DNA of 57,964 nucleotides, from positions 1 through 57,964 of the forward strand of contig CAUTVF010000001.1 in assembly GCA_963541805.1 (NCBI GenBank). Direction: 5' to 3'. Below the pieces are notes generated by a model. That model made no database searches. It worked only from the letters and a program-made list of their open reading frames with translations, and was not told the origin of the DNA. Below, one piece after another: positions 20,493-55,851 of this stretch. The translations under genes and the position numbers were made by a program. This DNA comes from an uncultured Alphaproteobacteria bacterium (GTDB lineage Bacteria > Pseudomonadota > Alphaproteobacteria > Rs-D84 > CASDRH01). Positions within the stretch are counted from its first letter, which is position 1; each line of letters begins with the position of its first letter.

Positions 20493-20521
20493 TTGACAAA
20501 AAAATTTTATTTGTTTAACTA
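20493..20521 (+). promoter_or_regulatory. Cassette promoter P1 (paralog A)
   Basis: TTGACAAAA..TTTGTTTA spacer, TAACTA at 17-nt spacing, AGGAGG SD. The ATG is 61 nt from the first base of the -35. Confidence 0.55.
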
Positions 20522-20553
20522 TGTAAGTACAGATCTATTTTTAAGGAGGCCTT

Positions 20554-21048
20554 ATGGCATTATATGTCAATTGCGACTTAAGTGCAGATGGATGGATTGG
20601 GCAGTATACGTATGGTAGACGAATACTTGTAATCAATAATCTTAATAAAAAATTTGCAGCAAATCATAAGATTTATTGTTCTACAAGATATACATCTACA
20701 TCACAATTCGGAGCAATATTTATAAATCCGACTCAAAAAGATACTTTTAAAAGCTGGCGAACTTTGGGATTATTTCTGATAAACTCCAGAGCTCAACATG
20801 GTTACCGCGTACTTGTAAACCCAAATGACAGACGAGGAATTAAAAGATATGAAATATTTCATAATTTTAGTTATCAGGGAGTCAAATTATGCAGTAAAAT
20901 TGGACTTTACAAGGTTGGAGTATGTATCGTAACGGAGCCAGAAAGCAAAGTAGACCAAAAAAGTTACTGGCAATTAACCAAAAAAGGTTGGGTTTTCCTC
21001 GGACATATCCTACCAACCCAGTACAAAGGTTTCATTCCCAGATATTAA
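20554..21048 (+). CDS. Unrecognised-family protein, paralog A (164 aa)
   Basis: Homologous to the ORFs at 21367 and 22019 through shared blocks LYVNxDL, GLFLI, GYRVLVNPND, GLYKVGVCIVT and YWQLTKKGW. It has a strong SD and its own terminator. Confidence 0.75.
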   Translation: MALYVNCDLSADGWIGQYTYGRRILVINNLNKKFAANHKIYCSTRYTSTSQFGAIFINPTQKDTFKSWRTLGLFLINSRAQHGYRVLVNPNDRRGIKRYEIFHNFSYQGVKLCSKIGLYKVGVCIVTEPESKVDQKSYWQLTKKGWVFLGHILPTQYKGFIPRY

Positions 21049-21068
21049 AAGCACTCACCACACCCATA

Positions 21069-21095
21069 TACCTCCGATTTCTCGGAGGTATTTTT
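21069..21095 (+). terminator. Rho-independent terminator of paralog A
   Basis: TACCTCCGA-tttc-TCGGAGGTA followed by TTTTT. Confidence 0.7.
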
Positions 21096-21118
21096 AAATC
21101 ATAAATATCCTAAAAGAT

Positions 21119-21208
21119 TGGCGGAGGGACTGGGATTCGAACCCAGGGCACCAATTTCTCGGTGCACGGATTAGCAATCCGCTGTATTAACCGCTCTACC
21201 ACCCCTCC
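21119..21208 (-). tRNA. tRNA-Ser (anticodon GCU)
   Basis: The reverse complement GGAGGGGTGGTAGAGCGG...GCGGATTGCTAATCCGT... has a long variable arm, T-loop TTCGAAT and an encoded CCA. Confidence 0.9.
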
Positions 21209-21304
21209 ACACAAATTACTAACGTTTCGGAGTAAATCAAATTTATAAAAATAAGTCAAGCCGTTTTAGTATTAATTAAATTATCTATTTTATTAATATT
21301 TAAT

Positions 21305-21333
21305 TTGACAAAAAATTATTATTTGTTTATCAT
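21305..21333 (+). promoter_or_regulatory. Cassette promoter P2 (paralog B)
   Basis: TTGACA, 17 nt (ending ATTTGTT), TATCAT, then GGAGG SD. The ATG is 62 nt from the -35. Confidence 0.6.
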
Positions 21334-21366
21334 ACAAACATACATTTATTTTTATGGAGGATTTTT

Positions 21367-21879
21367 ATGATATTGTACGTTAATCGTGATTTAATTTCAG
21401 AGCCATTGAAAAATGCCTGGTTTGGAAAGTATGCAGATGGATTTGAACATAAGGTTGTCATTGACCTTGATTACAATATACCAAAAGTATTAGCAAATCA
21501 AAAACTCAAATGCAATATTATATATGTTTCAGATTCTATATGTGGATATATCGGGATTACTAGATCCAAAAAAATTAAAATCCATGATATCAGGGGTTTA
21601 TTTTTTATAGACGCCGCATCTATATCAAACAAAGGATACGCTGTACTTGTCGATCCGAAGGATAAAAAAGGCATAAAAAGAGTTGAATTATTTCATGATT
21701 ACTCTAGAAATAGTAAAGGATATAGTAAATTTGGTCTTTATAAACCTGGTGCATGTATTGTAACCAATCCAAACAGTAAAAAACATCCACCACAATATTG
21801 GAAACTGACTAAAAAAGGATGGGTATCTCTTGGTAACAAATTACCACAGGAATATAAAGATTTTATACTATGTTATTAA
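21367..21879 (+). CDS. Unrecognised-family protein, paralog B (170 aa)
   Basis: MILYVNRDL..., GLFFID, GYAVLVDPKD, GLYKPGACIVT, YWKLTKKGW. The C-terminal ~80 aa are about half identical to paralog A by eye. Confidence 0.75.
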   Translation: MILYVNRDLISEPLKNAWFGKYADGFEHKVVIDLDYNIPKVLANQKLKCNIIYVSDSICGYIGITRSKKIKIHDIRGLFFIDAASISNKGYAVLVDPKDKKGIKRVELFHDYSRNSKGYSKFGLYKPGACIVTNPNSKKHPPQYWKLTKKGWVSLGNKLPQEYKDFILCY

Positions 21880-21900
21880 TTCATTACTCACTGTAAAAAA

Positions 21901-21928
21901 TACCTTCGAATCCGGAGGTATTTTTTTT
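21901..21928 (+). terminator. Rho-independent terminator of paralog B
   Basis: TACCTTCG-aatc-CGGAGGTA followed by T8. The sequence is related to the paralog A terminator. Confidence 0.7.
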
Positions 21929-21957
21929 ATCCATAAACTTTTTTACTAAAATTTAAT

Positions 21958-21985
21958 TTGACAAAAGTTAATATTTGTTTATATT
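21958..21985 (+). promoter_or_regulatory. Cassette promoter P3 (paralog C)
   Basis: TTGACA, 16 nt (ATATTTGTT), TATATT, then AGGAGG SD. The ATG is 61 nt from the -35. Confidence 0.55.
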
Positions 21986-22018
21986 ATGAAGCATATACAT
22001 ATTTTTAGGAGGTTTTTT

Positions 22019-22642
22019 ATGAAACTATTTGTTAACCGGAATTTAAGTAAAGATGTGGAATGTTGGGAAGGTAAATTTACTCCACACTTGTTTCCCATTT
22101 TAAGGGTATACAATAAGTTGGGAAAAGGAATTAAAGCAAATGAAGCCATAGATTGTGATGTTCATTGCGAAATTCCATTTTATGGGCCGAGCATATCAGA
22201 AATTAGCATCATACCCGAAAATAAAAAAAGGGATGATATAATCGGATTATTTTTGATGAATTCGACCAACCTTTATGGATACAGAATGCTTGCTCGTCCT
22301 GACGATCCTATGGATCTATTAATAAAATATAGAAATTATAGAATATTTTGCGACGGTGTTTCGGGAACTAGCAAGTCTAAGAAATTTATATGCAGCAAAT
22401 ATGGTATATATCGACTTGGAACTTGTATAGTAACCCAAGAAAAAGAATTAAAATATTGGGAGCTAACAGAATCTGGTTGGGAAGCTACTAAAACTAAACC
22501 TCTAAAATATAATGACTATATTTTGATGGATGACGACCTGACTAGTGTAGCTAGGCAATTAAACGGAGAAGTGGTAGAACAGGAAGAGATTCATTCATTT
22601 TTCAATATTTCAGCAGATTTTTTAGTTTCAAATATTAGATAA
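22019..22642 (+). CDS. Unrecognised-family protein, paralog C (207 aa, acidic C-terminal extension)
   Basis: MKLFVNRNL..., GLFLMN, GYRMLARPDD, GIYRLGTCIVT, YWELTESGW. Start set at the ATG at 22019, 6 nt after AGGAGG; the track start at 21986 lies inside the -10 region. Confidence 0.7.
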   Translation: MKLFVNRNLSKDVECWEGKFTPHLFPILRVYNKLGKGIKANEAIDCDVHCEIPFYGPSISEISIIPENKKRDDIIGLFLMNSTNLYGYRMLARPDDPMDLLIKYRNYRIFCDGVSGTSKSKKFICSKYGIYRLGTCIVTQEKELKYWELTESGWEATKTKPLKYNDYILMDDDLTSVARQLNGEVVEQEEIHSFFNISADFLVSNIR

Positions 22643-22674
22643 ATGATAAATTTAACATTATCACATCTGCATGA

Positions 22675-22701
22675 CCTGGCTTTCAAAAGCCAGGTTTTTT
22701 T
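22675..22701. terminator. Hairpin terminator between convergent paralog C and ftsH
   Basis: CCTGGCTT-tcaa-AAGCCAGG followed by T7. Confidence 0.65.
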
Positions 22702-22705
22702 AAGG

Positions 22706-24592
22706 TTAACTTTCTTTTTTAGTTTTTTTCTTAACAGAAATTTTTGAATCCACTTCTGATTTTTTCTTGTCAAAAGTGCCATCAACAATTGCTTGTAATT
22801 CTTCTCCTGTTAATGTCTCAAATTCAATTAAAGCCTCAGCAATTTTTCCTGTTTCAGATTTATACTTCTTAATTATACTCGTTGCCTCTTTAAATCCTTC
22901 ATCAATCATTGATGCAATTTCTGTATCAATTAATTTTGCAGTTTCATCGGATATATTTTTACGCTCACTTGATGTATGATAACCAAGAGAAGCCTCCTCA
23001 AAATATATCGGCCCTAATTTTTTAGAAAAACCCCACTTTGTAACTGCAGAACGTGCCATGTGCGTTGCATATTCTATATCACTTGATGCTCCAGATGTAA
23101 TTTTATCATTTCCAAAAAATATACCTTCTGAAACACGGCCACCAAATGCAATTACAATATTTGCCTTCAATTCAGAAATAGACAATGACACTTTATCATG
23201 CAAAGGCAAACGTTGGACCATTCCCAAAGCATCCCCACGTGGAATTATTGTTGCTTTATGAATTGGATCACTATGCTTCATTTTCAATGCACAAATTGCA
23301 TGTCCCGCTTCATGATATGCCGTCAATTTAATTTCTTCTGGACGCATTGTCATTGATCTGCGCTCTGCTCCCATCATTATTTTATCACGTGTGTCTTCTA
23401 AATCTTCTTGTGTAACTCCAATATGATTACGGCGCGCTGCAAGAAGCGCGCTCTCATTGATTAAATTTGATAACTCCGCACCAGAAAATCCAGGTGTACC
23501 GCGAGCAATACTATCTAATCTGACCCCATCAGCAATTTTGATATTTTTAGCATGGATATTTAAAATTTCCTCTCTACCTTTTAAATCAGGAAGAGGAACA
23601 TAAATTTGACGATCAAAGCGTCCAGGACGAAGTAATGCATCATCCAATACATCTGCTCTATTTGTTGCAGCAATGATTATTACACCATCATTTTCATCAA
23701 ATCCATCCATTTCAACAAGTAACTGATTCAATGTCTGTTCTCGCTCATCATTACCACCACCATATCCAACCCCTCTGTGACGTCCAACAGCATCTATTTC
23801 ATCAATAAAAATAATACATGGAGCAGAATGTTTCCCTTGATCGAATAAAGCACGAACACGAGACGCCCCAACACCAACAAACATCTCAACAAAATCAGAT
23901 CCGGATATTGTGAAAAATGGAACATTTGCTTCCCCCGCAATTGCACGTGCAAGCAAAGTTTTTCCAGTACCAGGGGGCCCAATTAACAAAACACCTTTTG
24001 GAATACGTGCACCAATCTTTGTAAATTTTTTTGGAGTTTTAAGGAAATCTATTATCTCTTCTAAATCTGCTTTTGCTTCATTGATACCCGCGACATTTTT
24101 AAATGTAACTTTTTTATCATTTCCTGCCAATTTCAAGCGCAATCTCATTATACCGCCAAATCTATCACCTCTCATAGAGCGAAGCATTGTAAATAACATA
24201 ATTCCGATAAAAACAATCCAAAGCAAATTAGTAATGCTATTAAAAGTAAATTCAGACGGATTTTTAATTTCAACTTTCACTTTACTAGTATCAAGTGTTT
24301 GAAAAAACACAGTATTCAAAGACACCGTTGATTTAAATTTTTTACCACTTTTCAACTCACCTTTAATATTGTTTTCTTTTATCACTATACTTTTTATTTT
24401 TCCATTCTTTGCATATGCCAGAACATCCGAATAAGCCAATTCTTTTATAGGTTCAGACTTTAACTTTCTATTCTTAAAAGTTTCGTACAAACTGGAGCTC
24501 CCCAATAACAGAGACACAGTTAAAACAAACAACAACCATTTTGGCAATTTCGGATTATTAAAAACCTTATTAAACTGTGATTTATTTTTCAT
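22706..24592 (-). CDS. ftsH: ATP-dependent zinc metalloprotease FtsH
   Basis: [26 protein letters not shown] and HEAGHA zinc motif; two N-terminal TM helices. Confidence 0.98.
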
Positions 24593-24609
24593 CTACCACC
24601 TTATTCCCA

Positions 24610-25608
24610 TTAAACTTTTGCAATTTGTAAAACACTTTTACCATTAATATTTATTAATTTCAATTTATTACCGGCCGCCATTTTAACATTAAATATTTTT
24701 GTTTTTAAAGATATTTTTAAATTATATATTATATTTCGAAGTATATCAGATCGAATATGACTATGTTCGGCATCTGAAAACCAACACATATATTTTTCAA
24801 GTACTCTGTAAATTATTTCGTCAGGTGCAGATAATAGAACATTTAAATCAATTTCAATAATTTTTAATTTATCAAATTTGTTAATTAAACATTTTCCTAA
24901 CATTATATGAACTGATGAATTAATTGCCTCACGCGCTGTTTTCATATTTTCAATAGTTTTACAAATTCTGTCATCATTTAAACCCAAAGACAAAAAAGTA
25001 TCATGCAATTTTCTGACACGCACACGCAAATATTTATCATCTTGATTACTTGGATCTTCTACCCAAGTTTGATTATATTGTTTGCATATATTTTTTAAAT
25101 CATCTTTTGAATGATTAAGTAATGGGCGAAAGAATGTTACACCATCCTTTTTAATAGTTTCAGGAATTCCACATAATCCATAAACACCACTTCCACGGAT
25201 TAAATTTAATAAAAATGTTTCTATCTGTTCATTTTTATTATGCCCCATTGCAACAAAATTTATTTTATTAGTTTTACAAAAATTTATGATTAAATCATAG
25301 CGATAATTACGAGCTATTTCTTCAATATTAGACTTTGGAATAATACCTTTATAAGTTAAAATTTTACAATCGATACCCAGATTATCCATTTTATTTTTTA
25401 CTTCATTTGCCTCAATTGTAGACTCTGATCGTAATTTATGATCCACAATTAAAGCTGTTAAATTTATAGAACGCTTTTTGCACCATTCATTCATTAATAA
25501 AGTCAAAGCCATACTATCACAACCACCAGATAAAGCAGTCGCAACTTTATCCGGATAAATAAATTTACCAATCAAAGGATCTATAAAAAAACTATCTATA
25601 AATTCCAT
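24610..25608 (-). CDS. tilS: tRNA(Ile)-lysidine synthase (short form)
   Basis: PP-loop ALSGGCDSMAL, immediately upstream of ftsH as is typical in alphaproteobacteria. Confidence 0.88.
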   Translation of the reverse strand: MEFIDSFFIDPLIGKFIYPDKVATALSGGCDSMALTLLMNEWCKKRSINLTALIVDHKLRSESTIEANEVKNKMDNLGIDCKILTYKGIIPKSNIEEIARNYRYDLIINFCKTNKINFVAMGHNKNEQIETFLLNLIRGSGVYGLCGIPETIKKDGVTFFRPLLNHSKDDLKNICKQYNQTWVEDPSNQDDKYLRVRVRKLHDTFLSLGLNDDRICKTIENMKTAREAINSSVHIMLGKCLINKFDKLKIIEIDLNVLLSAPDEIIYRVLEKYMCWFSDAEHSHIRSDILRNIIYNLKISLKTKIFNVKMAAGNKLKLININGKSVLQIAKV

Positions 25609-25691
25609 GTTTACAAAAATTACAGAATAAAAATAAAACTCTACAAGACATCCTGTAAAGTTTTATTAAATATAATAATTACAACATTTAA

Positions 25692-26639
25692 CTAACGTGC
25701 ATAAATACTAACTTGAGGATTCGAACTTGTTGTTACGTATGACTTAATAGAAATTCTTGAAGCAGGCATTTTCATTTCATTTAAAGTCGCCATAACTTTC
25801 TCTATATTCTTTTTTGCGATATCACTATTTGACGCAACAGACACGATTTGAAAAGATACAGATGAATCACGCTCCAAAGCTCTTGATAATGCATGATACA
25901 AAGGTTCCCCATAATCAGACTGCTTTGACATATCAATATCAATCAAAGAGCGAGAACCTGTTAACTTTTGATCCATAACATGCGAATAACTTTGCCCAGA
26001 TTTACGCATATATACCTCTTGCTTCATATTGTTACCTGAATTAACAACACGTCCCTCTTTTATACTCAAAGCTAAATCATTTAAATTCTCTTTCTCAATC
26101 AAAATAGAATGCATATTATTATCCACTTCATCGTCAACCCTTTTTATCAATGACAAAACATCACTTTTTACAAAAGCAGCATCAGACGATATTTTATTTA
26201 ATTCAGATTGCTCACTTTTTGTTTTGCCAGGGATTTTATCCATCCCTTTAACAGAACTATCAATATACTCTAAAATCTTTACATCTTTTTCATATTCTGC
26301 TATCAACATTTTCATATCGAAAGCAACATCATTATTCCTATCTAATTGCATTCTGGCAGTTTTCCATTGATCAACCAAATGTTTGTCTGCTGGAGCAGCA
26401 CCCATAGACAATGACAACTGAATTTTATTAACCGTATCTTTATAAGCAGTATTCGACTTTATAATATCATCACGCATTTCATTTAATGTCTGTTTACGTA
26501 CATCTTGTACTTTTCTGGCAGTCGACATTTCACCCCTTAAAGATTTAATTCTATCATCGACATACGAATTAGAATTCTCAGAAGCGCAAGCCCCAACGAA
26601 AAATGATATAACCAATGCAGACAAATACCCAACTTTCAT
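25692..26639 (-). CDS. Hypothetical lipoprotein with a long predicted coiled-coil region
   Basis: MKVGYLSALVISFFVGAC lipobox. Start placed at the ATG at 26637-26639. It occupies the slot upstream of tilS-ftsH where cpoB/ybgF usually lies, but no TPR repeats are visible. Confidence 0.5.
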   Translation of the reverse strand: MKVGYLSALVISFFVGACASENSNSYVDDRIKSLRGEMSTARKVQDVRKQTLNEMRDDIIKSNTAYKDTVNKIQLSLSMGAAPADKHLVDQWKTARMQLDRNNDVAFDMKMLIAEYEKDVKILEYIDSSVKGMDKIPGKTKSEQSELNKISSDAAFVKSDVLSLIKRVDDEVDNNMHSILIEKENLNDLALSIKEGRVVNSGNNMKQEVYMRKSGQSYSHVMDQKLTGSRSLIDIDMSKQSDYGEPLYHALSRALERDSSVSFQIVSVASNSDIAKKNIEKVMATLNEMKMPASRISIKSYVTTSSNPQVSIYAR

Positions 26640-26795
26640 AATAACCTCTATCAGTTTTTCAAATTTATTAACAGTACATAAATACAATACCTAACAGGCA
26701 ATCCTGATTGCAAGATCCTAAACTGTCGCAATACAAAAAGCAAATACTTTTAAGTGTTTTTTACCCATAATACTCATTATTTTAAATAAAATTCA

Positions 26796-26823
26796 TTGCA
26801 ATGTAGCATTTTTTATATATCAT
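26796..26823 (+). promoter_or_regulatory. Candidate promoter for tRNA-Cys and infC
   Basis: TTGCAA (26796-26801), 16 nt, then TATCAT (26818-26823). The predicted TSS falls a few nt before the tRNA 5' end. Confidence 0.45.
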
Positions 26824-26832
26824 ACGCAAGCG

Positions 26833-26906
26833 GGCTGGTTGGCAGAGTGGTCATGCAGCGGTTTGCAAAACCGTGTACATCGGTTCAATCCCGGTACCAG
26901 CCTCCA
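26833..26906 (+). tRNA. tRNA-Cys (anticodon GCA)
   Basis: Acceptor GGCTGGT/ACCAGCC, anticodon arm GCGGT-TTGCAAA-ACCGT, discriminator U (typical of tRNA-Cys) and an encoded CCA. Confidence 0.88.
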
Positions 26907-26936
26907 GTTTAATTTTAATTAGGAGTAAATATCATA

Positions 26937-27536
26937 GTGTACACCTCTTCTTTTCGAAAAACTAACTTTTCAAAAAACAACTCACCAGATAGATTTAAAA
27001 GAAATAATCAAACAAATGCTGTATCCGGTCCAAGATTAAGCAACAACATAAATTCATCAACCGTTAGATTAATTGATGAAAATGATATTAATGTTGGAAT
27101 TGTTTCACTGGAAAGTGCAATTGAAAAAGCAAATGAAGCAGGTTTAGATTTAATCGAGATTGCATCAAATACCACACCTCCTGTTGTTAAAATTATGGAT
27201 TTAGGAAAGTGGAAATATGAAGAATCTAAAAAGAAAGCCGCAATAAAAAAGAAGCAAAAAATAATTGAACTAAAGGAATTAAAATTTTCTTCAAATATAG
27301 AAGAAAATGATTATCAGGTGAAATTACGTAATGGTAAAAAATTTATTGCAGAGGGAAATAAAGTAAAAATCAATCTCCGCTTTAGAGGACGCGAAATGGC
27401 AAATAAAGAAATGGCAAAAAAACTGTTCGATCGCTTAATTGTTGATTTTTCAGATGTTGCTAAAGTATTTGTTGAACCAAAATTGGAAGGAAGACAGATG
27501 ACAATGCAACTTGCTCCTAACACAGACAAAAAATAA
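26937..27536 (+). CDS. infC: Translation initiation factor IF-3 (non-AUG start)
   Basis: VRLIDENDINVGIVSLESAIEKANEAGLDLIEIA...PPVVKIMDLGKWKYE. The only in-frame starts after the TAA at 26916 are ATC 26931, ATA 26934 and GTG 26937, downstream of AGGAG at 26921. Confidence 0.9.
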   Translation: MYTSSFRKTNFSKNNSPDRFKRNNQTNAVSGPRLSNNINSSTVRLIDENDINVGIVSLESAIEKANEAGLDLIEIASNTTPPVVKIMDLGKWKYEESKKKAAIKKKQKIIELKELKFSSNIEENDYQVKLRNGKKFIAEGNKVKINLRFRGREMANKEMAKKLFDRLIVDFSDVAKVFVEPKLEGRQMTMQLAPNTDKK

Positions 27537-27592
27537 AATACGATTTATTTGCGTCAAATAATCTTGAGATAGATATTTCGTTTTGATCATAT

Positions 27593-28231
27593 TCACAGTT
27601 TTTGATTACGGTTAGATCTATTTTTTTCTGAAAACACACAACCACAATATTTTTGGTTATACAATTTGTCGCTACAAATTATTTGTCTGCGCAGTTTGTA
27701 GTTGTCATTTGCTTGCCAATCGTAATACCAATATTTCACATCACTATATTTTTTCTCTAATAACCGTGCAGCATTTCTAACTTGATCAAAATTTTTATAA
27801 ATTGAAACTGCAAGAGTTGACGACACAATTTTAAAATTATTTTTTGATGCAAAATTAAATAATTTATCTAATCTGAAAGAAAAACATTTTTGACAACGCT
27901 CTGACATTTCAGGTAAATTTTCCAAACCTTTTGCAACATTATTCAACCATTTTTGGTTTTCTGTTTTATAATCTATAATGTCATCTAAATCTTCATATTT
28001 AATACCATACTTTTGACAATAATTTGTGACTGTTTCTTTTCTCATCTGATATTCTAAAAATGGCATTATATTAGGATTATAAAATAATACTGTGACATCA
28101 ATATCATTCTCCTTAAGTTCTTGTAGTAATAAACATGAACACGGAGCACAACACACAAGCAGTAATAATTTATTGTCAATATTTATTTTATCAAAAGATT
28201 CCTTTATTTTTCTGTTACTTTCTGTTGTCAT
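27593..28231 (-). CDS. queH: Epoxyqueuosine reductase QueH (DUF208 family)
   Basis: LLLLVCCAPCS N-terminal cysteine motif and C-terminal YNQKYCGCVFS motif. Confidence 0.72.
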   Translation of the reverse strand: MTTESNRKIKESFDKINIDNKLLLLVCCAPCSCLLLQELKENDIDVTVLFYNPNIMPFLEYQMRKETVTNYCQKYGIKYEDLDDIIDYKTENQKWLNNVAKGLENLPEMSERCQKCFSFRLDKLFNFASKNNFKIVSSTLAVSIYKNFDQVRNAARLLEKKYSDVKYWYYDWQANDNYKLRRQIICSDKLYNQKYCGCVFSEKNRSNRNQKL

Positions 28232-28311
28232 TTTGTTTTATTTTGATTTTTATACATATTTATGATAGCTTGAGAACGGTTTTTATTATCTGATAATTTA
28301 GGTAAATTTCA

Positions 28312-30440: not shown

Positions 30441-30481
30441 AACTTGTTGTAAAATATGCAGGCAGAATATATAATAACCAT

Positions 30482-38836: not shown

Positions 38837-38864
38837 TTGACAAAATAAAATTTTGGTATAGCAT
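38837..38864 (+). promoter_or_regulatory. Cassette promoter P4 (ankyrin gene)
   Basis: TTGACAAAA, 16 nt, TAGCAT, then GGAGG SD. The ATG is 61 nt from the -35. Confidence 0.5.
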
Positions 38865-38897
38865 GGTGCGAATTATCTATTTATTGGAGGTATTTTT

Positions 38898-39626
38898 ATG
38901 TTATGGACTATCAAGAATGGCTATCGTATTAAAGTATTAAAGGCATTGATGGGTAGTATTAATTTTTCAAAAGACAAGAAAAATATACTTTCAACAGTAA
39001 TTGCACGATATATTGAATACTACGATGGACGTATTCCACGTGTGATCATTCATGAAATGAGCGATTATGTTGAGTATGCATGTCAGTTGGAACCGATTTT
39101 GTATCCTTTATTATCTGATGGGATAACAAGACAGGAAGAGGCACTGATACTAAACTTCGCTGTCATCTTTGGATATCAAGAGGTTGTAAAGATTTTACTA
39201 AAAGCTAATGTAAAACAGGATAGCTTTTTGATGACAAAGCCATATAAATTGCTTGGCACTGATTTATATCCAATAAATTTTGCCTACTACAATGGGGATG
39301 TAGGAATGACGAGATTATTAATGGAACATTGTCCTAAAGTAAAATATGCGGTACATGTTAGTGGAAGCGACAATATAATTCGAGTTACTACCCCTATGTT
39401 TGGGAGGGAAACAATTTACAAAAACTTCAAACCTAAAGATGAAGTAATAAAAAAAATTGTTAAGACTTTGAATATTCAGTTTCCTTATTTATGTGCAGAT
39501 AGGGCATCTAGAAATAAAGTTTTTTATATGCTCCAAGATAATAGAGAAATAATATACTCTCTTAAAGGTGGATATATTCCCAAAAATGCCTCGTTTACTC
39601 TTGATGCGTCATATTCTTGTAATTAG
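38898..39626 (+). CDS. Ankyrin-repeat protein (at least 2 ANK repeats)
   Basis: ALILNFAVIFGYQEVVKILLKANVKQD and DLYPINFAYYNGDVGMTRLLMEHCPKV fit the ANK consensus. No signal peptide. Confidence 0.65.
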   Translation: MLWTIKNGYRIKVLKALMGSINFSKDKKNILSTVIARYIEYYDGRIPRVIIHEMSDYVEYACQLEPILYPLLSDGITRQEEALILNFAVIFGYQEVVKILLKANVKQDSFLMTKPYKLLGTDLYPINFAYYNGDVGMTRLLMEHCPKVKYAVHVSGSDNIIRVTTPMFGRETIYKNFKPKDEVIKKIVKTLNIQFPYLCADRASRNKVFYMLQDNREIIYSLKGGYIPKNASFTLDASYSCN

Positions 39627-39696: not shown

Positions 39697-40431
39697 TTAA
39701 AATAGACCAGATAGCGATGCCGCGATTCTCTCCTTCACCGCCTTTGATCCTTCTTGTTCTGTTAAATTAACCATATTGGATACAGCATGTAATACAGTTG
39801 TATAATACTTCCTGTTTTTCTTTTCATATGAAGATGAAACAACTCCACCCTCTGCTCCTTGTTGCTGAACCTGAATATTTGAAGTTTTCACAACAGATTT
39901 GGTCTTTTCTCCCAAACGAATATCAACAGTTACATCATAATATCCATCTTTTGTATTGGCATCCAATGCCATTGATGCAATGCCTCCAGCGACCGCACCT
40001 GTTAAAGTGGACAAAACCTGACCTCTACCACCACCAATTGTTGATCCTGCAATGCCACCAACAACAGCTCCAGGGATTGCAGATTCTTTACCATCAATTT
40101 TTTTACTTGTTAAAACAGCATTTTTAACATTAACTTGCATAATGTAATAAGCTTTATCTGGATCTTGCTCAATTTTATACCCCTTACTTACCAAATCCCC
40201 AATAATAAATTTATGCAAATCACTGAAATTAGTGTTTCCTGAGGTATTTCGCATTTGTACAAGTATTGTTTGATTACTTGGAGAAACTGGATCCAACCAA
40301 ATAGTATTTGACATCGTAACTTTTACATCCATTTCATCTTTGCTCATTCTTGTATACATTGCCCCACAAGAAACGGTTACAAAAGCAAATCCGACAAGCA
40401 TAAGATTTTTTAAACTGACTTTTTTATTCAT
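39697..40431 (-). CDS. traT: TraT-like surface-exclusion / complement-resistance lipoprotein
   Basis: Lipobox VTVSCGAMY followed by MSNTIWLDP...ILVQMRNTS...KGYKIEQDPDKAYYIMQVNV, a Gly-rich central segment and ...NMVNL..., collinear with F-plasmid TraT as recalled. Confidence 0.78.
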   Translation of the reverse strand: MNKKVSLKNLMLVGFAFVTVSCGAMYTRMSKDEMDVKVTMSNTIWLDPVSPSNQTILVQMRNTSGNTNFSDLHKFIIGDLVSKGYKIEQDPDKAYYIMQVNVKNAVLTSKKIDGKESAIPGAVVGGIAGSTIGGGRGQVLSTLTGAVAGGIASMALDANTKDGYYDVTVDIRLGEKTKSVVKTSNIQVQQQGAEGGVVSSSYEKKNRKYYTTVLHAVSNMVNLTEQEGSKAVKERIAASLSGLF

Positions 40432-40525
40432 AACTAACTCCTAACTGACTCAATTATCAATTGTTTATAAAACTTTTTGAGTTTATTATCATTTAAGTTT
40501 ATATGCAAGAGTAAAAGGATAAATC

Positions 40526-41077
40526 ATGCCAACAATTATCAAAATCATTGGAATAGATAATATTCATAAAAAAACAATGTTGGCATTATTTAAAAACCAT
40601 TTATTATCAAAACAATTTAAAATTTCTGAAGATAATTACGATGTAATTTTATCGATTGATAATAAACATTTAACACTTACATCAAAAGATAATGTAAATA
40701 GCATTAAATTGAATATACCTTTTTTTATCAATGATTTATTAAATATTATAAACAATTTAGTCGCTGAAGATAATCAAAAAAACATACTTAAGATACAAAA
40801 TATTAGTATAGATATAAAAAATTCTACTGTTACTAAAAATAAAAGAAATGTCACACTAACAGAAAAAGAAATTCGAATAATTACGTGTTTATTTGAAGCA
40901 AAAGGAACAGCATTAACTAGAGAAGAACTACTTAAAAATATCTGGGGATATTCTGAAAATATTGATACACATACACTTGAATCACATATATATAAATTAA
41001 GACAAAAAATAGAGGATGATGCAAAAAATCCACAAATTATTATAACAAACAATGGAGCATATAAATTAATTGTATAA
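40526..41077 (+). CDS. OmpR/PhoB-type winged-helix regulator with a short degenerate receiver-like N-terminus
   Basis: C-terminal LTEKEIRIITCLFEAKGTALTREELLKNIWGYSENIDTHTLESHIYKLRQKI...GAYKLI. The N-terminal ~85 aa lack the acidic DD pocket and the rest of a REC domain. Confidence 0.65.
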   Translation: MPTIIKIIGIDNIHKKTMLALFKNHLLSKQFKISEDNYDVILSIDNKHLTLTSKDNVNSIKLNIPFFINDLLNIINNLVAEDNQKNILKIQNISIDIKNSTVTKNKRNVTLTEKEIRIITCLFEAKGTALTREELLKNIWGYSENIDTHTLESHIYKLRQKIEDDAKNPQIIITNNGAYKLIV

Positions 41078-42348: not shown

Positions 42349-42576
42349 TTAAAACAACCTCGGCAACCATTTGTTCAGTAGTGCTTGTCTCATATGATTT
42401 AATAATAAAATCACTGAAATTGATACAATCTCTGATATTATCCCACATACTGTAATTATTAAAGTAACGCAAATAGATAATATTTGAAAATATAATCCAC
42501 AAATTAACGTTGCAACAATTAACAAAGGAACGACAAATGCCATAAACTTACAAACTCTATACAATACTCCATCCAT
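42349..42576 (-). CDS. Small hydrophobic protein, 75 aa, two predicted TM helices
   Basis: MDGVLYRVCKFMAFVVPLLIVATLICGLYFQILSICVTLIITVCGIISEIVSISVILLL. The ATG at 42574-42576 lies 7 nt after AAGGAG. The track start at 42621 would place the promoter inside the CDS. Confidence 0.6.
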   Translation of the reverse strand: MDGVLYRVCKFMAFVVPLLIVATLICGLYFQILSICVTLIITVCGIISEIVSISVILLLNHMRQALLNKWLPRLF

Positions 42577-42610
42577 AAAAATACTCCTTATAAATAAATT
42601 TGTTCCAATA

Positions 42611-42638
42611 ATAATAAACAAAAAAATTATTTTGTCAA
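42611..42638 (-). promoter_or_regulatory. Cassette promoter Pm (small TM gene)
   Basis: Minus strand TTGACAAAATAATTTTTTTGTTTATTAT: -35 at 42633-42638, TATTAT -10, AAGGAG SD. The ATG is 62 nt from the -35. Confidence 0.55.
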
Positions 42639-43568: not shown

Positions 43569-43585
43569 TATCTCTTTCCTTATAA

Positions 43586-46176: not shown

Positions 46177-46202
46177 TCATAAATACCAGTATAAATTAAA
46201 AA

Positions 46203-46230
46203 CTTGGGTAGATTTACCCAAGTTTTTTTA
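46203..46230. terminator. Hairpin terminator between the TPR gene and murA
   Basis: ACTTGGGTA-gatt-TACCCAAGT followed by T7. Confidence 0.7.
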
Positions 46231-46257
46231 TTAATCATATAGATAATTACATTTGAA

Positions 46258-47589: not shown

Positions 47590-47601
47590 TTATTTTATCC
47601 A

Positions 47602-50253: not shown

Positions 50254-50355
50254 GATAATCGATAATTATATTTTTGTATGGCGATAGTATATTGTCCTTG
50301 TACCATTCGCAAGAAAAAATATTGCTATTAATTATTTTCAATAGATAATTAAAAT

Positions 50356-51138
50356 ATGAAAATTAAAATATTATATATATTTTTTTTGTGTTTTACTTTT
50401 AGCGTGTGGTATTTTTTATTACCAAATAGAATACAAGAAAACAAATTAATTGATATTGCTTACAGTTTTATAAATTATCCATACCAAGCAAATTCAATTA
50501 AATGTAAATCAAATGAATACGTACCAACATATAAAGAAATTAAAAATTTTGATTGTGTCACATTTGTTGAAACTGTATTAGCACAATATGAAACACAACA
50601 AAATTTATTTAATCAAGATTTTCAAAAAAGCCTACAAAAAATACGTTATAAAAATGCAATTAACAGTTGTGAAAATCGCAATCATTTTTTTGTATTAGAT
50701 TTGATCAAAAATAATCCTGTATATAATATAACCAACATATCTCAAAAAATAAGTTGTAACCACAAAATAACATCTAAAAAAGTAACAATTAATAAATCGG
50801 AATGGTTCAAAGAAAATCATAACATAAATATTAAGAAGAATATAGAATATCTTACAATTGACTATATTAAATCTGGTGATTTTACGACTATAAATTTTAA
50901 TAATTTAAAAAATCTATTACCGACGATATCATTAATGGCAATAATTGGACAAGACAAAAATATCGACGTAAATCATGTAGGATTTTTAATAAAAAAACAA
51001 AATAAAATTGTATTTTTACACGCAAGCTATGTACAAAAAAAAGTAATAGAAGAAAATATATTTAATTATTTATCAAAAATCAAAAAAAATAAAACACTAC
51101 TTGGAATTGCAGTGTTTCAAATATCTCACAAAAATTAA
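50356..51138 (+). CDS. DUF1460-like putative cell-wall amidase/peptidase
   Basis: Signal/TM segment, FDCVTFVETVLA cysteine motif and a later VNHVGFLIKK histidine motif, as recalled for DUF1460. Confidence 0.4.
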   Translation: MKIKILYIFFLCFTFSVWYFLLPNRIQENKLIDIAYSFINYPYQANSIKCKSNEYVPTYKEIKNFDCVTFVETVLAQYETQQNLFNQDFQKSLQKIRYKNAINSCENRNHFFVLDLIKNNPVYNITNISQKISCNHKITSKKVTINKSEWFKENHNINIKKNIEYLTIDYIKSGDFTTINFNNLKNLLPTISLMAIIGQDKNIDVNHVGFLIKKQNKIVFLHASYVQKKVIEENIFNYLSKIKKNKTLLGIAVFQISHKN

Positions 51139-51186
51139 TTTGCATTACCAACTCTTATACTATAGCATGCAAATAGTTTTCATTAA

Positions 51187-52404
51187 ATGGATTATAGAAT
51201 GAAATTAGCAAGAAAATATTTACTTCAATTACTCATAGGTTCTGTACTTTTTTGTTTTGAAACCAAAGCTGAAATAAAAAAGTATCGCGTCGAATTATCT
51301 GATGGAGAAGCATATCAAAAAGAAGTACGTTTTATAGAACGCGTCAATTATGGATCTCCCATTCAAAATGAATACGTTGGAAATTTATTTAACAATAATC
51401 AGATTATTTATCGTGCCGTAAACGATGATCCAAGTGTTACATTTATGCCATACAGATTTAGACCAGGAGATGAAATTTTATTTAATACAGACGAAATTAA
51501 CACATATAGAATAGCTGAAGATAAAACAAAAAAAACATATCAAAAATATGATGATTATTTTGACAATTCTCCAATTAAATTCGAAAGCAAGCAAGTTGTA
51601 CCGTGTATAGTTTATCCAAGATCAAATAGATCAAAAAAATATGGGTGGTGTTTTTATCCAACAGATGAAGTTTTAAAACCAATTAAATATAAACAAGCAA
51701 ATATTGACGATTTGATGGATTATGATAAAGGAAATAAGTTAACATTGTTATATGTTATTTTACCAAAAAATAGACTGACAACTGGATATATAAAAATCAA
51801 ACATAAAGGAGAGTGGATTAAAAATTCAAATGGTGATGATTGGAAATTACCAGTAATGGGATTGTCTCGTGTTAATTTAAAAAAGGGTAAAAATGACAGA
51901 ATTGATCCAGATTCAAATACCCCCCAAGGAATTTATAGATTGGAGGGGGTTATGAAAAATGAAGAAAATTTGGAATTAGGTGATAAACCATACTTGGATA
52001 TAGATTCTGGATGGTTACCTGTTGGAGCGGCACCTTATAACTTTGATTACTACATTATGTCTGAAATTATCAATGAAAAATATTGGAATGACTATTGGAT
52101 AAATGAGTATGCCTTAGGTTATGCTGTAACTGGGCGAAATTTGTTGCGTATTCATGGAAATTCTGCTGATCCAAATAACCCTCCAACATATGAAGACAAA
52201 AATACCAAAGTATTATATCGTCCGACCAAAGGATGTTTAAATGCTGCCGGAGAAATGCAAAAGTTATTGAATGTATTAATTGATATTGATGTGATCTCTT
52301 TAAACTACGATAATTCTGTAACTTTTGCATCTGGTAAAAAAAAGTATTGGAATAAAAGTAAATCAATTGGAAATACTTTTGTAATCGTTAAAGATGATGA
52401 TTAG
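51187..52404 (+). CDS. Secreted protein with an L,D-transpeptidase (YkuD)-like C-terminal domain
   Basis: Signal peptide. TPQGIYRLEGV ... LRIHGNS ... TKGCLNA resembles the YkuD TPxGxF / HG / SxGC(I/V)R catalytic signature, with a longer His-Cys spacing. Confidence 0.42.
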   Translation: MDYRMKLARKYLLQLLIGSVLFCFETKAEIKKYRVELSDGEAYQKEVRFIERVNYGSPIQNEYVGNLFNNNQIIYRAVNDDPSVTFMPYRFRPGDEILFNTDEINTYRIAEDKTKKTYQKYDDYFDNSPIKFESKQVVPCIVYPRSNRSKKYGWCFYPTDEVLKPIKYKQANIDDLMDYDKGNKLTLLYVILPKNRLTTGYIKIKHKGEWIKNSNGDDWKLPVMGLSRVNLKKGKNDRIDPDSNTPQGIYRLEGVMKNEENLELGDKPYLDIDSGWLPVGAAPYNFDYYIMSEIINEKYWNDYWINEYALGYAVTGRNLLRIHGNSADPNNPPTYEDKNTKVLYRPTKGCLNAAGEMQKLLNVLIDIDVISLNYDNSVTFASGKKKYWNKSKSIGNTFVIVKDDD

Positions 52405-52444
52405 CTACAACTATTTAAACAGTAATAAGTTATAATAAGTCTAT

Positions 52445-53383
52445 ATGAAATATAAAAGAGTTTTCAGAAGAAATATTTACTGTTCAGCAGTTTTAAAAAA
52501 GTTAATTATATTTTTTGATAACTTAATTAAGAAAAACTATCCTTTTTTTCTTTCAATTTTTGTATTTGTTTTATTGTTTGTTTTTGCCTTAATATTCAAT
52601 AAATATAAAAGTAATAAAGAAATTAATAATTTTAATAAACTACAAACTATATTTAATCAAAAAAATTATAATTTATACTCAATACGCAATAATAAATCAA
52701 AAGTTCCTCGATTATTTATAAAATATTTTCCGAAAGATTTTGATGCTATACAAAATAAATACATTAGAAAAAATATTTTTATTCAGATTGTACTGCCACT
52801 GATTTTGAAAGTTAATGAAGAAATTATAAATGAAAGAAATATAGTAATTAAAATTAAGCATAAAAAACAAAAAAACATTACATTGCAAACGGCAGAATTA
52901 GAATTTTTAAAAAAAATTTCACAAAAATATAAAGTAAGTAATGATTTAAATGAATTGATGAATAGAGTCGATATAATTCCTGTTTCTTTAGCCCTTGCAC
53001 AAGCAATACAAGAAACTGGATGGGGAAAATCATACTTTTTAATAAATGGAAACGCACTATTCGCAGAGTGGACATGGAAATATGATGGGATGATACCACG
53101 AGAAAGAGACTCTAAACTCCACCACAGAATAAAAACATTCCCTACTCTAATAGAATCTGTCAGAAGTTATGCAAATATTTTAAATTCCAGCAAATATTAC
53201 AAACACTTCAGAACTACCAGAAAATCATTATATAGACAAGGAATCTCATATAATGGAATAAATTTAGGTGATACTATGAAACATTACTCTACCACCCAAG
53301 ATTATTTATTCTTCGTCAAAAAAATTATCATAGAAAACTCGCTAACTGACTTTGATAAATCTGAGTTACAAAAGCCACTATGA
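52445..53383 (+). CDS. Bax-like glucosaminidase-domain protein
   Basis: N-terminal TM helix. LALAQAIQETGWGKSYF...NALFAEW is the mannosyl-glycoprotein endo-beta-N-acetylglucosaminidase (FlgJ/Bax) motif. Confidence 0.62.
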   Translation: MKYKRVFRRNIYCSAVLKKLIIFFDNLIKKNYPFFLSIFVFVLLFVFALIFNKYKSNKEINNFNKLQTIFNQKNYNLYSIRNNKSKVPRLFIKYFPKDFDAIQNKYIRKNIFIQIVLPLILKVNEEIINERNIVIKIKHKKQKNITLQTAELEFLKKISQKYKVSNDLNELMNRVDIIPVSLALAQAIQETGWGKSYFLINGNALFAEWTWKYDGMIPRERDSKLHHRIKTFPTLIESVRSYANILNSSKYYKHFRTTRKSLYRQGISYNGINLGDTMKHYSTTQDYLFFVKKIIIENSLTDFDKSELQKPL

Positions 53384-53451
53384 ACATTTAATGTAACTTG
53401 AAAATTATTAAAATTTTGCTACCATGGCGATAACTAATTGAAAAGAAAAAT

Positions 53452-54279
53452 ATGTGTGAATCTTTACCAAAAGTAATTGTTGTTGGAAATGAAAAAGGAG
53501 GATCTGGAAAATCAACTCTTTCTTTTCATTTTGCAGTTGCCTATATGTACTCTGGATATAAAGTTGCAACAATTGATCTTGATGGGCGCCAAGGCACCTT
53601 AACACATTACATTGAAAATCGTATTAATTTTTGTAAAAGTAAAAATATGGTCTTACCAATACCAGAACATCTGGTGATTACTCCCCAATTATTTTCTGAT
53701 GAAATTGCAGCAAAAGAAGATATGGAAGATTTAGATTATGAAATAGATTCACTTAAAAATAATTTTGACATAATAATAATTGATACACCTGGAACATATA
53801 ATCATTTATCAAATACAGGGCACAAAAATGCAGATATTTTAATTACTCCTGTTAATGATAGCTTGCTTGATTTGGATGTTATTGCAAAAATTGATGTAGA
53901 AAAAAATATTTTGGAGAAAAGTCATTATACTAAAAATGTTGAAAAACTAAATAGCAGAATAAATAATCCAGAAATTGGTCAAGAAATAAAGCAAAATTTT
54001 AAATGGATCGTTCTTAGAAATCGGGTTGCACATATTGAAGCCAATAATAAAAAAGAAGTAGATAAAATGTTAAAATATTTTTCAGAAGAAATAGGTTTTA
54101 AATATTTATCAGGTATCGGTGAAAGAGTAATATATAGAGAATTATTTTTAAAAGGACTTACAATATCAGATATAGTCAACGAACCATTATTACAAAATAA
54201 ATTGACTATATCGCACATTGCTGCAAAAAATGAATTAACTACAGTTATGAACACAATAGGAATACCAATTAAAAAATGA
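53452..54279 (+). CDS. mipZ: Division-plane positioning ATPase MipZ (ParA-like)
   Basis: KVIVVGNEKGGSGKSTLSFHFAVAYMYSGYKVATIDLDGRQGTLTHYIENR closely parallels the Caulobacter MipZ N-terminus as recalled. Length of about 275 aa fits. Confidence 0.82.
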   Translation: MCESLPKVIVVGNEKGGSGKSTLSFHFAVAYMYSGYKVATIDLDGRQGTLTHYIENRINFCKSKNMVLPIPEHLVITPQLFSDEIAAKEDMEDLDYEIDSLKNNFDIIIIDTPGTYNHLSNTGHKNADILITPVNDSLLDLDVIAKIDVEKNILEKSHYTKNVEKLNSRINNPEIGQEIKQNFKWIVLRNRVAHIEANNKKEVDKMLKYFSEEIGFKYLSGIGERVIYRELFLKGLTISDIVNEPLLQNKLTISHIAAKNELTTVMNTIGIPIKK

Positions 54280-54290
54280 ACAGAATCTAA

Positions 54291-54608
54291 AAATTAATAA
54301 AAGAAGTTTATATAATTACTAAAGGCATACAGATTAACAAAACAGAAATGATTAAAGATGGTAGTTTTCCAGTTATAAATAGGGTATTTCAGCATCTGAA
54401 TTACTATAACAATCTCCCAAGGTAAACACTGGTTATGTTAAATAAAGTACTGAATGAATTTAGCAATCAAACAAATGGATTAGAATTAATATCACTATTA
54501 CAACAAGAATTAGTATTAAGAACAAAGAAATACGAATACTACAGAGATCCTCTTCTAAACTCTATCTACTACCCATTTACCTTAATGGTATACATATATC
54601 TAAAATAA
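54291..54608 (+). pseudogene. hsdS: Collapsed remnant of a type I restriction-modification specificity subunit (hsdS)
   Basis: Fragment 1 (54291-54425) reads KEVYIITKGIQINKTEMIKDGSFPVIN then frameshifts (GISAS in the +2 frame, YYNN in frame 0). Fragment 2 (54435-54608) reads LNKVLNEFSN...LQQELVLRTKKYEYYRDPLLN, matching the conserved HsdS C-terminal helix. No hsdM or hsdR nearby. Confidence 0.5.
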
Positions 54609-54629
54609 ATATCTTAATAAATATAAAGT

Positions 54630-55184
54630 TTATAGAATCAATTGTAAGTTATCCTTTGTACCTTTTGATGCACGAATATTCACAGCAATTACTAAAACCA
54701 TATCTGTTATATTTTTATACTCTAATAAATGCGTAGTATTAACTGTGATTTTTGTTACAAGTCTATCATCATCAAACAACGTATAAATAGGCTTGTTGCC
54801 AAATTTCTTTACTAAATTATCTGTTATTTCTTGAGATACTTGAGGACGACGCAATCCATCAAGCAAAGTTTTTAATCGATTATCAATATCTGCTCTGGCA
54901 GTTCCTAATACTTCAGGATGCATTATTAAAATATCAAGTTCAGCAACCAAATCTAACTCTGGAGAAATTATTGGAATAAATATAAGGCCCCCGACCTTTT
55001 TAACAATATTCTTTTTATTTTTGTACCCATTCAAATAAATATAGTCATTTATTGCAGAATATGGTGGAATTTCTAACAATCGCTTTAACTGTGCAGAAAA
55101 ATATGCACGAATATCGTTTATATGTCTTGCCCTTTGTTTAGGATATGTTTTTATCTCCCCTTGATATAATAATCTAAATTTCAT
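54630..55184 (-). CDS. Hypothetical protein with a RusA-like (Holliday-junction resolvase fold) motif pattern
   Basis: RADIDNRLKTLLDGL and LFDDDRLVTKITV parallel RusA RRRDLDNLQKAAFDAL and WLDDAQVVDYRV. The match is motif-level only. Confidence 0.35.
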   Translation of the reverse strand: MKFRLLYQGEIKTYPKQRARHINDIRAYFSAQLKRLLEIPPYSAINDYIYLNGYKNKKNIVKKVGGLIFIPIISPELDLVAELDILIMHPEVLGTARADIDNRLKTLLDGLRRPQVSQEITDNLVKKFGNKPIYTLFDDDRLVTKITVNTTHLLEYKNITDMVLVIAVNIRASKGTKDNLQLIL

Positions 55185-55235
55185 AGTTCCCTCTACTCTA
55201 TTTTGCCTTATTTTTCCTATATTTTCAAATACAAT

Positions 55236-55263
55236 TTGACAAGCGCTTTTTATTAATTAAACT
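55236..55263 (+). promoter_or_regulatory. Candidate tRNA-Thr promoter
   Basis: TTGACA (55236-55241), 16 nt, then TAAACT (55258-55263). Confidence 0.4.
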
Positions 55264-55298
55264 CCCTACATCATCTGGAATGGAAAAACATAAGCATT

Positions 55299-55373
55299 GC
55301 CGGTGTGGCTTAGTGGTAAAGCACTCCCTTGGTAAGGGAGAGATCGCGGGTCCGATTCCCTCCACCGGCACCA
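55299..55373 (+). tRNA. tRNA-Thr (anticodon GGU)
   Basis: Acceptor GCCGGTG/CACCGGC, anticodon arm CTCCC-TTGGTAA-GGGAG and an encoded CCA. The T arm is atypical (GCGGG/CCCTC with a C-U mismatch; loop TCCGATT). Confidence 0.85.
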
Positions 55374-55447
55374 TTTTGGTTACCCAATATAAATGAATCT
55401 CATAAATTGTTGTCCAAGTAAGATTTATACAATTTCTAACAAATAAA

Positions 55448-55477
55448 TTGACAAAATATATTTTTGTTTATTATCAT
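55448..55477 (+). promoter_or_regulatory. Cassette promoter P5 (73-aa ORF)
   Basis: TTGACAAAATATATTTTTGTTTATTATCAT, then AGGGAG SD. The ATG is 61 nt from the -35. Confidence 0.55.
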
Positions 55478-55508
55478 AAGTTAGAACAATATTTTTAGGG
55501 AGAAATAT

Positions 55509-55730
55509 ATGGTTGATACAATCCAATATCTACAAGATACTATTGAGAGAGATTATATCGAAAACAAAGCCCTGCTAAGTGTCCTGAAGAGTAATAATGG
55601 ATATGATGCAGCAAATTGGTTCGCCGGGGAACTTCACGATGCCAAAAAAAAGCGTATTATAATAGCTAATTTTTTGGATGTACTCGATGAATACAAAAAA
55701 AAGTGTAGTCAAAAAACATTCACAATTTAA
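55509..55730 (+). CDS. Small hypothetical protein, 73 aa, predicted helical
   Basis: ORF with the cassette promoter, an SD and its own terminator. No family recognised. Confidence 0.55.
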   Translation: MVDTIQYLQDTIERDYIENKALLSVLKSNNGYDAANWFAGELHDAKKKRIIIANFLDVLDEYKKKCSQKTFTI

Positions 55731-55737
55731 ATAAAAC

Positions 55738-55765
55738 GGTTTACCTCAATGAGGTAGACCTTTTT
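55738..55765 (+). terminator. Rho-independent terminator of the 73-aa ORF
   Basis: GGTTTACCTC-aat-GAGGTAGACC followed by TTTTT. It shares the TACCTC/GAGGTA core with the paralog A and B terminators. Confidence 0.7.
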
Positions 55766-55787
55766 ATTACAATTTAAAAATTAATTA

Positions 55788-55815
55788 TTGACAAATATTT
55801 TTTTTAGTTTAAAAT
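55788..55815 (+). promoter_or_regulatory. Cassette promoter P6 (87-aa ORF)
   Basis: TTGACA, 16 nt, TAAAAT, then AGGAGG SD. The ATG is 64 nt from the -35. Confidence 0.5.
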
Positions 55816-55851
55816 TAGCAACAATAAAATTACAATTTAGGAGGTATTTGT

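Follow-up and report, generated by a model that had tools for sequence, protein, structure and literature searches.

A lineage-restricted promoter and leader module precedes small orphan and ankyrin-repeat genes in an uncultured alphaproteobacterium

Promoters recognized by sigma70 (RpoD) may carry an extension of the -10 element, such as 'TGn' in Escherichia coli or the 'TRTGn' -16 region in Gram-positive bacteria, and phage morons (a concept of Hendrix and Juhala) are autonomous promoter-gene-terminator units whose cargo often consists of membrane or host-interaction proteins. Putative mobile promoters, as described by Nijveen, Matus-Garcia and van Passel in 2012, are upstream regions that are 80% or more identical across 50 or more nucleotides (nt) and precede non-homologous genes (PMC3575422). 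Legionella and Coxiella have PmrA-activated and CsrA-repressed regulons of Icm/Dot effector genes with a shared cis element (PMC6989116). Here we compare with these systems a stereotyped module of about 75 bases, a promoter followed by a fixed leader, that precedes seven small open reading frames (ORFs) in a 57,964-nt stretch of DNA (the window) from an uncultured alphaproteobacterium. The window is contig C1 (CAUTVF010000001.1) of a metagenome-assembled genome (MAG; GCA_963541805.1), whose bin comprises 917,869 bp in 83 contigs, with 29.8% G+C and 92% completeness. The bacterial share of the bin is ~759 kb (0.76 Mb) and holds roughly 750 genes according to a simple gene caller. Nothing relevant came up when the literature was searched for a promoter motif described on endosymbiont ankyrin or effector genes.

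The module is a discrete, lineage-restricted class with about 27 full-length copies in the bacterial contigs, and it is probably a high-expression cassette head that selection maintains as two linked halves. The promoter half consists of TTGACAAA, an A/T spacer ending in TTTGT, and TAnnnT, with 16 nt between TTGACA and TAnnnT in most copies and 17 in some. The columns that are invariant or nearly so in an alignment of 22 copies are TTGACA and its AA extension, G-T, the A and T of TAnnnT, TATTTTT and GGAGG; TTGACA is present in 22/22 aligned copies, and the -10 A and T are at least 90% conserved. The genome encodes RpoD (726 bits), and RpoH is its only other sigma70-family gene; the module is unlike the sigma32 consensus, and RpoD is the likely cognate factor. 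With its TTGACA, its 16-17 nt spacer, its TAnnnT and a T-preceded TG near the -10, in an organism that has RpoD, the module resembles extended sigma70 promoters. It differs from them in having two bases, not one, between TG and hexamer, an AA(A) extension on the -35 and a fixed leader to which the promoter is coupled. The canonical extended -10 arrangement, with TG at -15/-14 and a single base between it and the hexamer, is not seen: the invariant G-T is at -15/-14 and TG at -16/-15 (for example TATGTCTATAAT), and the same two-base offset from TAnnnT is found in other families of the order. The -10 extension of this lineage sits, in other words, one base upstream of the textbook position. The sequence TTTGTTTA, which the initial annotation singled out at the end of the spacer, is TTTGTT plus the first two bases of the -10.

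A variable stretch of 11-15 nt follows the -10 and separates the two halves, and transcription is predicted to start within it, about 7 nt downstream of the -10. In the leader half a TATTTTTA box abuts GGAGG, after which come 5-7 nt and the ATG. The Shine-Dalgarno (SD) element is GGAGG in 18/24 copies, GGGAG in 5/24 and GGAG in 1/24, always 5-7 nt from an ATG or GTG, as in SD-led initiation, and it is lengthened to AAGGAGGT in several copies. Only 37 of the 750 bacterial genes have the full GGAGG, the usual SD being AAGGA/AAGG or none. The two halves are linked: when the profile is split, only ~4 of ~30 matches to the promoter half lack the leader half.

The module was counted in several ways. 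Genome-wide there are nine occurrences of the strict pattern TTGACA-N7-12-TTTGTTTA, five of them in the window, and all nine are followed by TATTTTTA-GGAGG-N5-7-ATG at a constant distance. An nhmmer profile, after one iteration, converged on 25 matches with E<1e-3, or 28 if E<0.01 is allowed, and had no match at E<1e-3 in six second-order Markov genomes; a second search, with a sequence-only covariance model (CM), gave 27 matches. A histogram that uses no profile, of the distance from TTGACA to an SD-led start, has a sharp genome-wide peak at 59-63 nt, and the -35 to ATG distance is 58-65 nt (median 61) in 23 of the 24 copies with an ORF. The window makes up 7.6% of the bacterial DNA yet holds 7 of the 27 copies (binomial p=0.003); clustering of copies near contig ends was not significant (p ~0.09).

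The initial annotation had proposed seven such modules in the window, and all seven lie where it placed them; -35 to ATG distances, measured again, are 61, 62, 61, 61, 62, 61 and 64 nt in the order below. The proposed spacer end TTTGTTTA is exact at five of the seven sites, the site at 38837 having the variant TTTTGGTA and that at 55788 the variant TTTTAGTTTA. Each ORF ends, as had also been claimed, in a terminator of its own (7/7), which lies within ~35 nt of the ORF and consists of a hairpin of -13.8 to -18.6 kcal/mol and then a T-run. The housekeeping distances that had been set against the module hold for the rpsL promoter (188 nt) and the rpmB promoter (66 nt), and a '37-nt leaderless gene' could not be identified. 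The features, with G001 standing for a genome of the same genus, are:

20493..20556, + strand: module copy 1, paralog A, from the -35 TTGACAAA through the ATG; CM score 45.7 bits
20554..21048, + strand: ORF A, 164 amino acids (aa), of the orphan family A/B/C; ratio of nonsynonymous to synonymous substitution rates (dN/dS) with the G001 orthologue 0.11
21068..21091, + strand: intrinsic terminator of A
21305..21369, + strand: module copy 2, paralog B
21367..21879, + strand: ORF B, 170 aa
21894..21930, + strand: terminator of B, hairpin of -15.6 kcal/mol and T-run
21958..22021, + strand: module copy 3, paralog C
22019..22642, + strand: ORF C, 207 aa
22673..22696, + strand: terminator of C, common to the convergent ftsH
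38837..38900, + strand: module copy 4, variant TTTTGGTA; promoter block 90% identical in the orthologous G001 copy
38898..39626, + strand: ankyrin-like ORF, 242 aa, weak Ank_2 match; paralogs on contigs C8, C56 (3 copies) and C67
39644..39680, + strand: terminator of the ankyrin ORF
42574..42638, - strand: module copy 5
42349..42576, - strand: hydrophobic ORF, 75 aa
42300..42328, - strand: terminator of the 75-aa ORF
55448..55511, + strand: module copy 6; promoter block 29/29 identical in G001
55509..55730, + strand: ORF of 73 aa; dN/dS with the G001 orthologue 0.10
55733..55768, + strand: terminator of the 73-aa ORF
55788..55854, + strand: module copy 7, variant TTTTAGTTTA, 64 nt
55852..56115, + strand: ORF of 87 aa
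56141..56170, + strand: terminator of the 87-aa ORF

The genome under study (G000) was compared with G001, which is 63% complete, and with genomes from two other genera of the family (G003 and G002). In five orthologous module pairs between G000 and G001, 128 of 146 positions are identical in the block from -35 to -10 and 101 of 118 in the block of leader, SD and ATG, against 32 of 69 in the stretch between the blocks. Upstream flanks are mostly 42-57% identical, and the genes downstream have diverged by 35-73% at synonymous sites. With ~87% identity in the blocks against this synonymous divergence, both blocks are under purifying selection; in the stretch between them length alone is kept. 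The covariance model finds the module in part of the family:

G000, this genome: 27 matches
G001, same genus: 12 matches
G003, another genus of the family: 9 matches
G002, a third genus of the family: 0 matches
Other families of the order, 57 genomes: 0-6 matches each, mostly the promoter half alone

In G001 and G003, too, the modules precede ankyrin, transmembrane and lipoprotein-like ORFs.

The genes behind the module form a biased set. The 25 module ORFs, which are 52-298 aa long, include no Pfam domain except ankyrin. Seven of them show similarity to ankyrin repeats, in four cases above the cut-off; inspection by eye reveals hydrophobic segments, at the N-terminus or internally, or sequences resembling a lipobox in about nine; and the remainder are small orphans. 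Among random genes of similar size with an upstream region of their own, 11 of 20 belong to Pfam families (Fisher p = 1.7e-5), or 10 of 15 when phage contigs are left out (p = 3.5e-6). The enrichment on orphan over core genes, which the initial annotation proposed as a check, is borne out strongly for orphan and ankyrin cargo (Fisher p ~4e-6). The dN/dS values with same-genus orthologues are 0.10-0.33 for module ORFs and 0.07-0.08 for the TraT and FtsH controls, so the module ORFs are real proteins, and the A/B/C array is called identically in independent assemblies. The assemblies ENA ERZ27279290 and JGI 3300011990 come from samples in which this organism is present. Paralogs A, B and C have no match in Pfam or NCBIfam; among 5.8 billion proteins their family comprises only five clusters, all from this genus, and an AlphaFold model (all-beta, predicted local distance difference test score 75) has no fold match in the PDB (best E 0.2). 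G+C content at third codon positions (GC3) is 0.264 in module ORFs, 0.270 in the ribosomal-protein operon (p=0.36) and 0.204 in other genes (p ~1e-6). This pattern fits expression-linked codon bias better than a foreign origin of the cargo, which we do not prefer because ribosomal-protein genes share the shift, and it would be consistent with high expression of the module genes.

Like morons, the module cassettes consist of a single small accessory gene with its own promoter and intrinsic terminator, wedged between unrelated genes; such autonomous, monocistronic promoter-ORF-terminator units are found at 7/7 sites in the window and 22/24 genome-wide. Unlike morons, they share a stereotyped promoter and leader and are old syntenic residents under purifying selection. 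Nor do they lie in phage or prophage DNA: their neighbours are core genes (ftsH, rpmB, tRNAs and a murI-like gene), and no copy was found on the phage contigs of the bin (~159 kb).

If the module were merely the generic strong promoter and ribosome-binding site (RBS) of the genome, and its link to orphan genes a sampling artefact, it should precede most genes. A TTGAC(N) -35 does lie 60-66 nt ahead of the start of the rpmH, rplU, groES, frr and rpmB genes, so the compact geometry by itself is not special, and the promoter half recurs in other families of the order. These genes, however, lack TTTGT, TATTTTTA and GGAGG; the leader half is essentially confined to module genes, and the full module is present in only ~27 of ~378 promoter-bearing intergenic regions (bacterial genes with at least 60 nt of upstream intergenic DNA), in keeping with the distinct set that the initial annotation suggested. 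In the bacterial contigs no ribosomal, tRNA or other Pfam-classifiable housekeeping gene has it, and 0/27 module genes belong to a housekeeping Pfam family compared with 10/15 controls. Such an explanation is already largely refuted, and we regard it as very improbable. A true regulon, in which a DNA-binding or leader-binding factor switches the set together, for example during host infection, is less far-fetched, though still unlikely. It has a precedent in the PmrA and CsrA effector regulons of Legionella, with which the module shares an upstream signature on tens of scattered lineage-specific genes, some of them ankyrin genes, in a bacterium bearing a type IV secretion system (T4SS), and such a signature could serve to predict effectors (PMC6989116). 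Candidate elements would be the inverted repeat ACAAA...TTTGT across the -35/-10 spacer, with ACAAA 100% and TTTGT 70-100% conserved, or the TATTTTT box, which is invariant, conserved between species and similar to a -10 (TAnnnT), and which might serve for sigma-dependent pausing or for the binding of a protein; the halves, moreover, are tightly linked and limited to one functional class of cargo. In the PmrA and CsrA systems, however, either the -35 is weak and an activator site takes its place or adjoins it, or the leader is the target of CsrA (PMC6989116), whereas the module signature is a complete consensus promoter plus SD, which requires no activator. A factor of the module would in all likelihood repress a promoter that is strong in itself. 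We searched the genome for a csrA gene and found none, and leader control of the CsrA type is rejected on that ground. The spacer element does not mark the set either. Two tRNA promoters, on contigs C81 and C56, also contain TTTGTT-TAnnnT, and so do several other upstream regions (seven forward and one reverse among non-module regions); promoters of the form TTGACAAA...TGT(C/T)TAnnnT, with TG before the -10, are seen in other families of the order; TTTGT is thus best read as the -10 extension of the lineage, and the idea of TTTGTTTA as a regulator site specific to orphan genes falls away. The AA extension of the -35 is likewise present at the rpsL and rpmB promoters. A member-specific cis element of the PmrA type is therefore not to be seen in TTTGTTTA; it is the full bipartite module that is class-specific, and even this is built of general expression signals. 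The repeat ACAAA...TTTGT may leave room for a repressor, yet its parts occur singly in other promoters. As for the regulator that the initial annotation gave as an example, the product of the gene at 40526 is a winged-helix protein of the OmpR type whose N-terminus is short and atypical. Clear orthologues of this gene adjoin a TraT-like gene in each of the four family genomes, and because G002 is among them and lacks modules, the phyletic evidence does not tie the gene specifically to the module. Direct repeats such as OmpR-family proteins usually bind are also absent. A second OmpR-type protein is encoded on contig C27.

Another explanation for the similarity is inheritance, the module being a mobile or copied promoter cassette that was pasted before unrelated genes or spread by duplication. 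In favour of copying, several paralog families have the module before every member, namely A/B/C, the ankyrin genes (three on C56 and one each on C8, C67 and C1) and the C10/C42 pair; cassettes also adjoin tRNA-Ser and tRNA-Thr, and a segment with tRNA-Ser and paralog B is ~99% identical in two species although its flanks are only ~80% identical. The module is like the putative mobile promoters (PMC3575422) in that similar upstream regions precede non-homologous genes of one genome, but it misses their threshold and its likeness is confined to functional positions. Copies within the genome have a mean pairwise identity of 60% and a maximum of 75% over 63 columns, and of 231 pairs just one attains 80% when its best window of 50 columns is taken. 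Pairs from the same family (58% alike) are not closer than unrelated pairs (60%), and no inverted or direct repeats bound the module. At 31 unconstrained columns identity is 0.394, against 0.393 in a column-shuffled null; with no excess there, the copies are not recent duplicates, and the suggestion that the module is copied along with new genes fails for recent time. Ancient co-duplication within families is conceivable. The similarity of the copies is what selection for common signals retains, and copying as its source is as improbable as a mere generic promoter.

The tRNA-Ser(GCU) and paralog B segment (21105-21950, compared with contig C23 of G001, locus L013) deserves a separate description. 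Against its ~99% identity the flanks, paralog A and ftsH, reach ~80%, and the far side of the G001 cassette is bounded by a second, ~30-nt copy of the tRNA-Ser 3' end. The pattern suggests that DNA was recently exchanged or integrated at tRNA-Ser, or else that a shared segment was cross-assembled. Paralog C is mostly gone from G001, where a remnant codes for the C-terminal tail only. The G001 counterpart of the 87-aa cassette (L014, 7700-8120) has a decayed -35 (TTGATA), a decayed SD (TGAGG) and a broken-up reading frame, and is a cassette in the midst of decay.

Other parts of the module recur nearby. A copy of the promoter half only, TTGACAAAATAATATTTTATGTCTATATT, lies at 20429-20458 on the - strand, divergent from module copy 1; it drives an ORF of 222-232 aa (19722-20420) without the TATTTTTA-GGAGG leader, and this ORF has no match in Pfam or NCBIfam. 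The terminators of A and B (21068-21100 and 21900-21930) finish in CGGAGGTATTTTT, a string identical to the SD and spacer (GGAGGTATTTTTATG) of the modules at 38837 and on contigs C70, C56 and C71. The match may be a coincidence, or it may hint that terminator arms and RBSs are interconvertible. At 39697-41077 a TraT-like lipoprotein gene and the OmpR-type winged-helix gene are arranged divergently; the pair is kept in 4/4 family genomes and is probably a local regulator-target pair.

Further promoter types were seen outside the window. One stereotyped class has the form TTGACAA-N4-5-G(6-9)-TAGAAT-GCAAAAAATTTT, in which poly-G fills most of the -35/-10 spacer. It occurs on the + strand at C10:21971, C19:11662, C30:9978 and C50:692, and on the - strand at C7:10581, C8:20226, C13:17292, C32:313 and C44:68. 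Five copies have G-runs of 6, 6, 8, 8 and 9 in the assembly, the spacers are just 12-15 nt, and the ORFs that follow have signal-peptide-like N-termini; from their sequence these look like slipped-strand, phase-variable promoters of surface proteins. In several genomes of another family (L030, L035 and L046), a conserved protein of 51-52 aa (MTENMNKF..AAGYKK..) has promoters of the form TTGACAAAAA...TATATATT or TATAAAAT, with a AAGAGGCA SD. The phage contigs of the bin are T4-like (C2, C9, C20, C21, C24, C28, C29, C36, C45, C49, C62 and C63); they are set apart cleanly by tetranucleotide composition and by promoter motifs of their own, and the SD of their genes is mostly AAGGA.

A selection-maintained cassette head would work as follows. 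The promoter half would be the consensus RpoD promoter of the order, in which AA(A) extends TTGACA and an A/T spacer of 16-17 nt, with TTTGT at its end, leads to TAnnnT. The transcript would begin with a leader of ~26-29 nt in which the conserved UAUUUUUA is followed by GGAGG, up to AAGGAGGU being complementary to the 3' end of 16S rRNA, and a U-rich spacer of 5-7 nt would lead from the SD to the AUG. The 16S rRNA of an order-level relative terminates in GGATCACCTCCTTTCA. Together with an intrinsic terminator for each ORF, the module would make autonomous monocistronic units, which are expected to be strongly transcribed and translated without an activator. Within this genus and a sister genus, the design would have been retained specifically on accessory genes that are young and evolve fast. 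Several observations weigh against parts of this reading. The TG is one base farther from the -10 than is canonical, and its recognition by sigma region 3 is an assumption; GC3 is a crude proxy for expression; and a 16S gene was looked for in the four family MAGs, the one studied here included, and none was found. The leader and start region is predicted to fold slightly more stably than in controls (-5.5 vs -3.7 kcal/mol), which does not support an argument from an unstructured leader, and the invariance of TATTTTT could have a cause other than a translational enhancer.

The cargo of ankyrin-repeat proteins, small membrane proteins, lipoproteins and orphan families would be plausible as host-interaction or surface factors of a reduced alphaproteobacterium with a T4SS, for which the genome encodes a VirB4 ATPase. 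More tentatively, and rather doubtfully as a whole, the module could mark a second channel of expression, one dedicated to the host-facing accessory proteome of an endosymbiont-like lineage, with both halves read together and the set controlled jointly; the means may be a factor that binds the invariant UAUUUUUA-GGAGG leader, a sigma-dependent pause at the TATTTT that resembles a -10, or a specialised mode of initiation. In that case the presence of the module alone would predict secreted, surface or T4SS-delivered proteins.

The module offers a clean case in which likeness of promoter and leader before unrelated genes is kept by selection and not by copying. It also provides a predicted natural strong promoter and RBS of defined sequence for a lineage without genetic tools. 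Host-interaction genes of uncultured, reduced alphaproteobacteria that bear a T4SS are hard to pick out because they are without homologues. Here a compact DNA signature singles out ~27 monocistronic genes, including seven ankyrin genes and about nine for membrane proteins or lipoproteins, as a list of candidate effectors and surface proteins.

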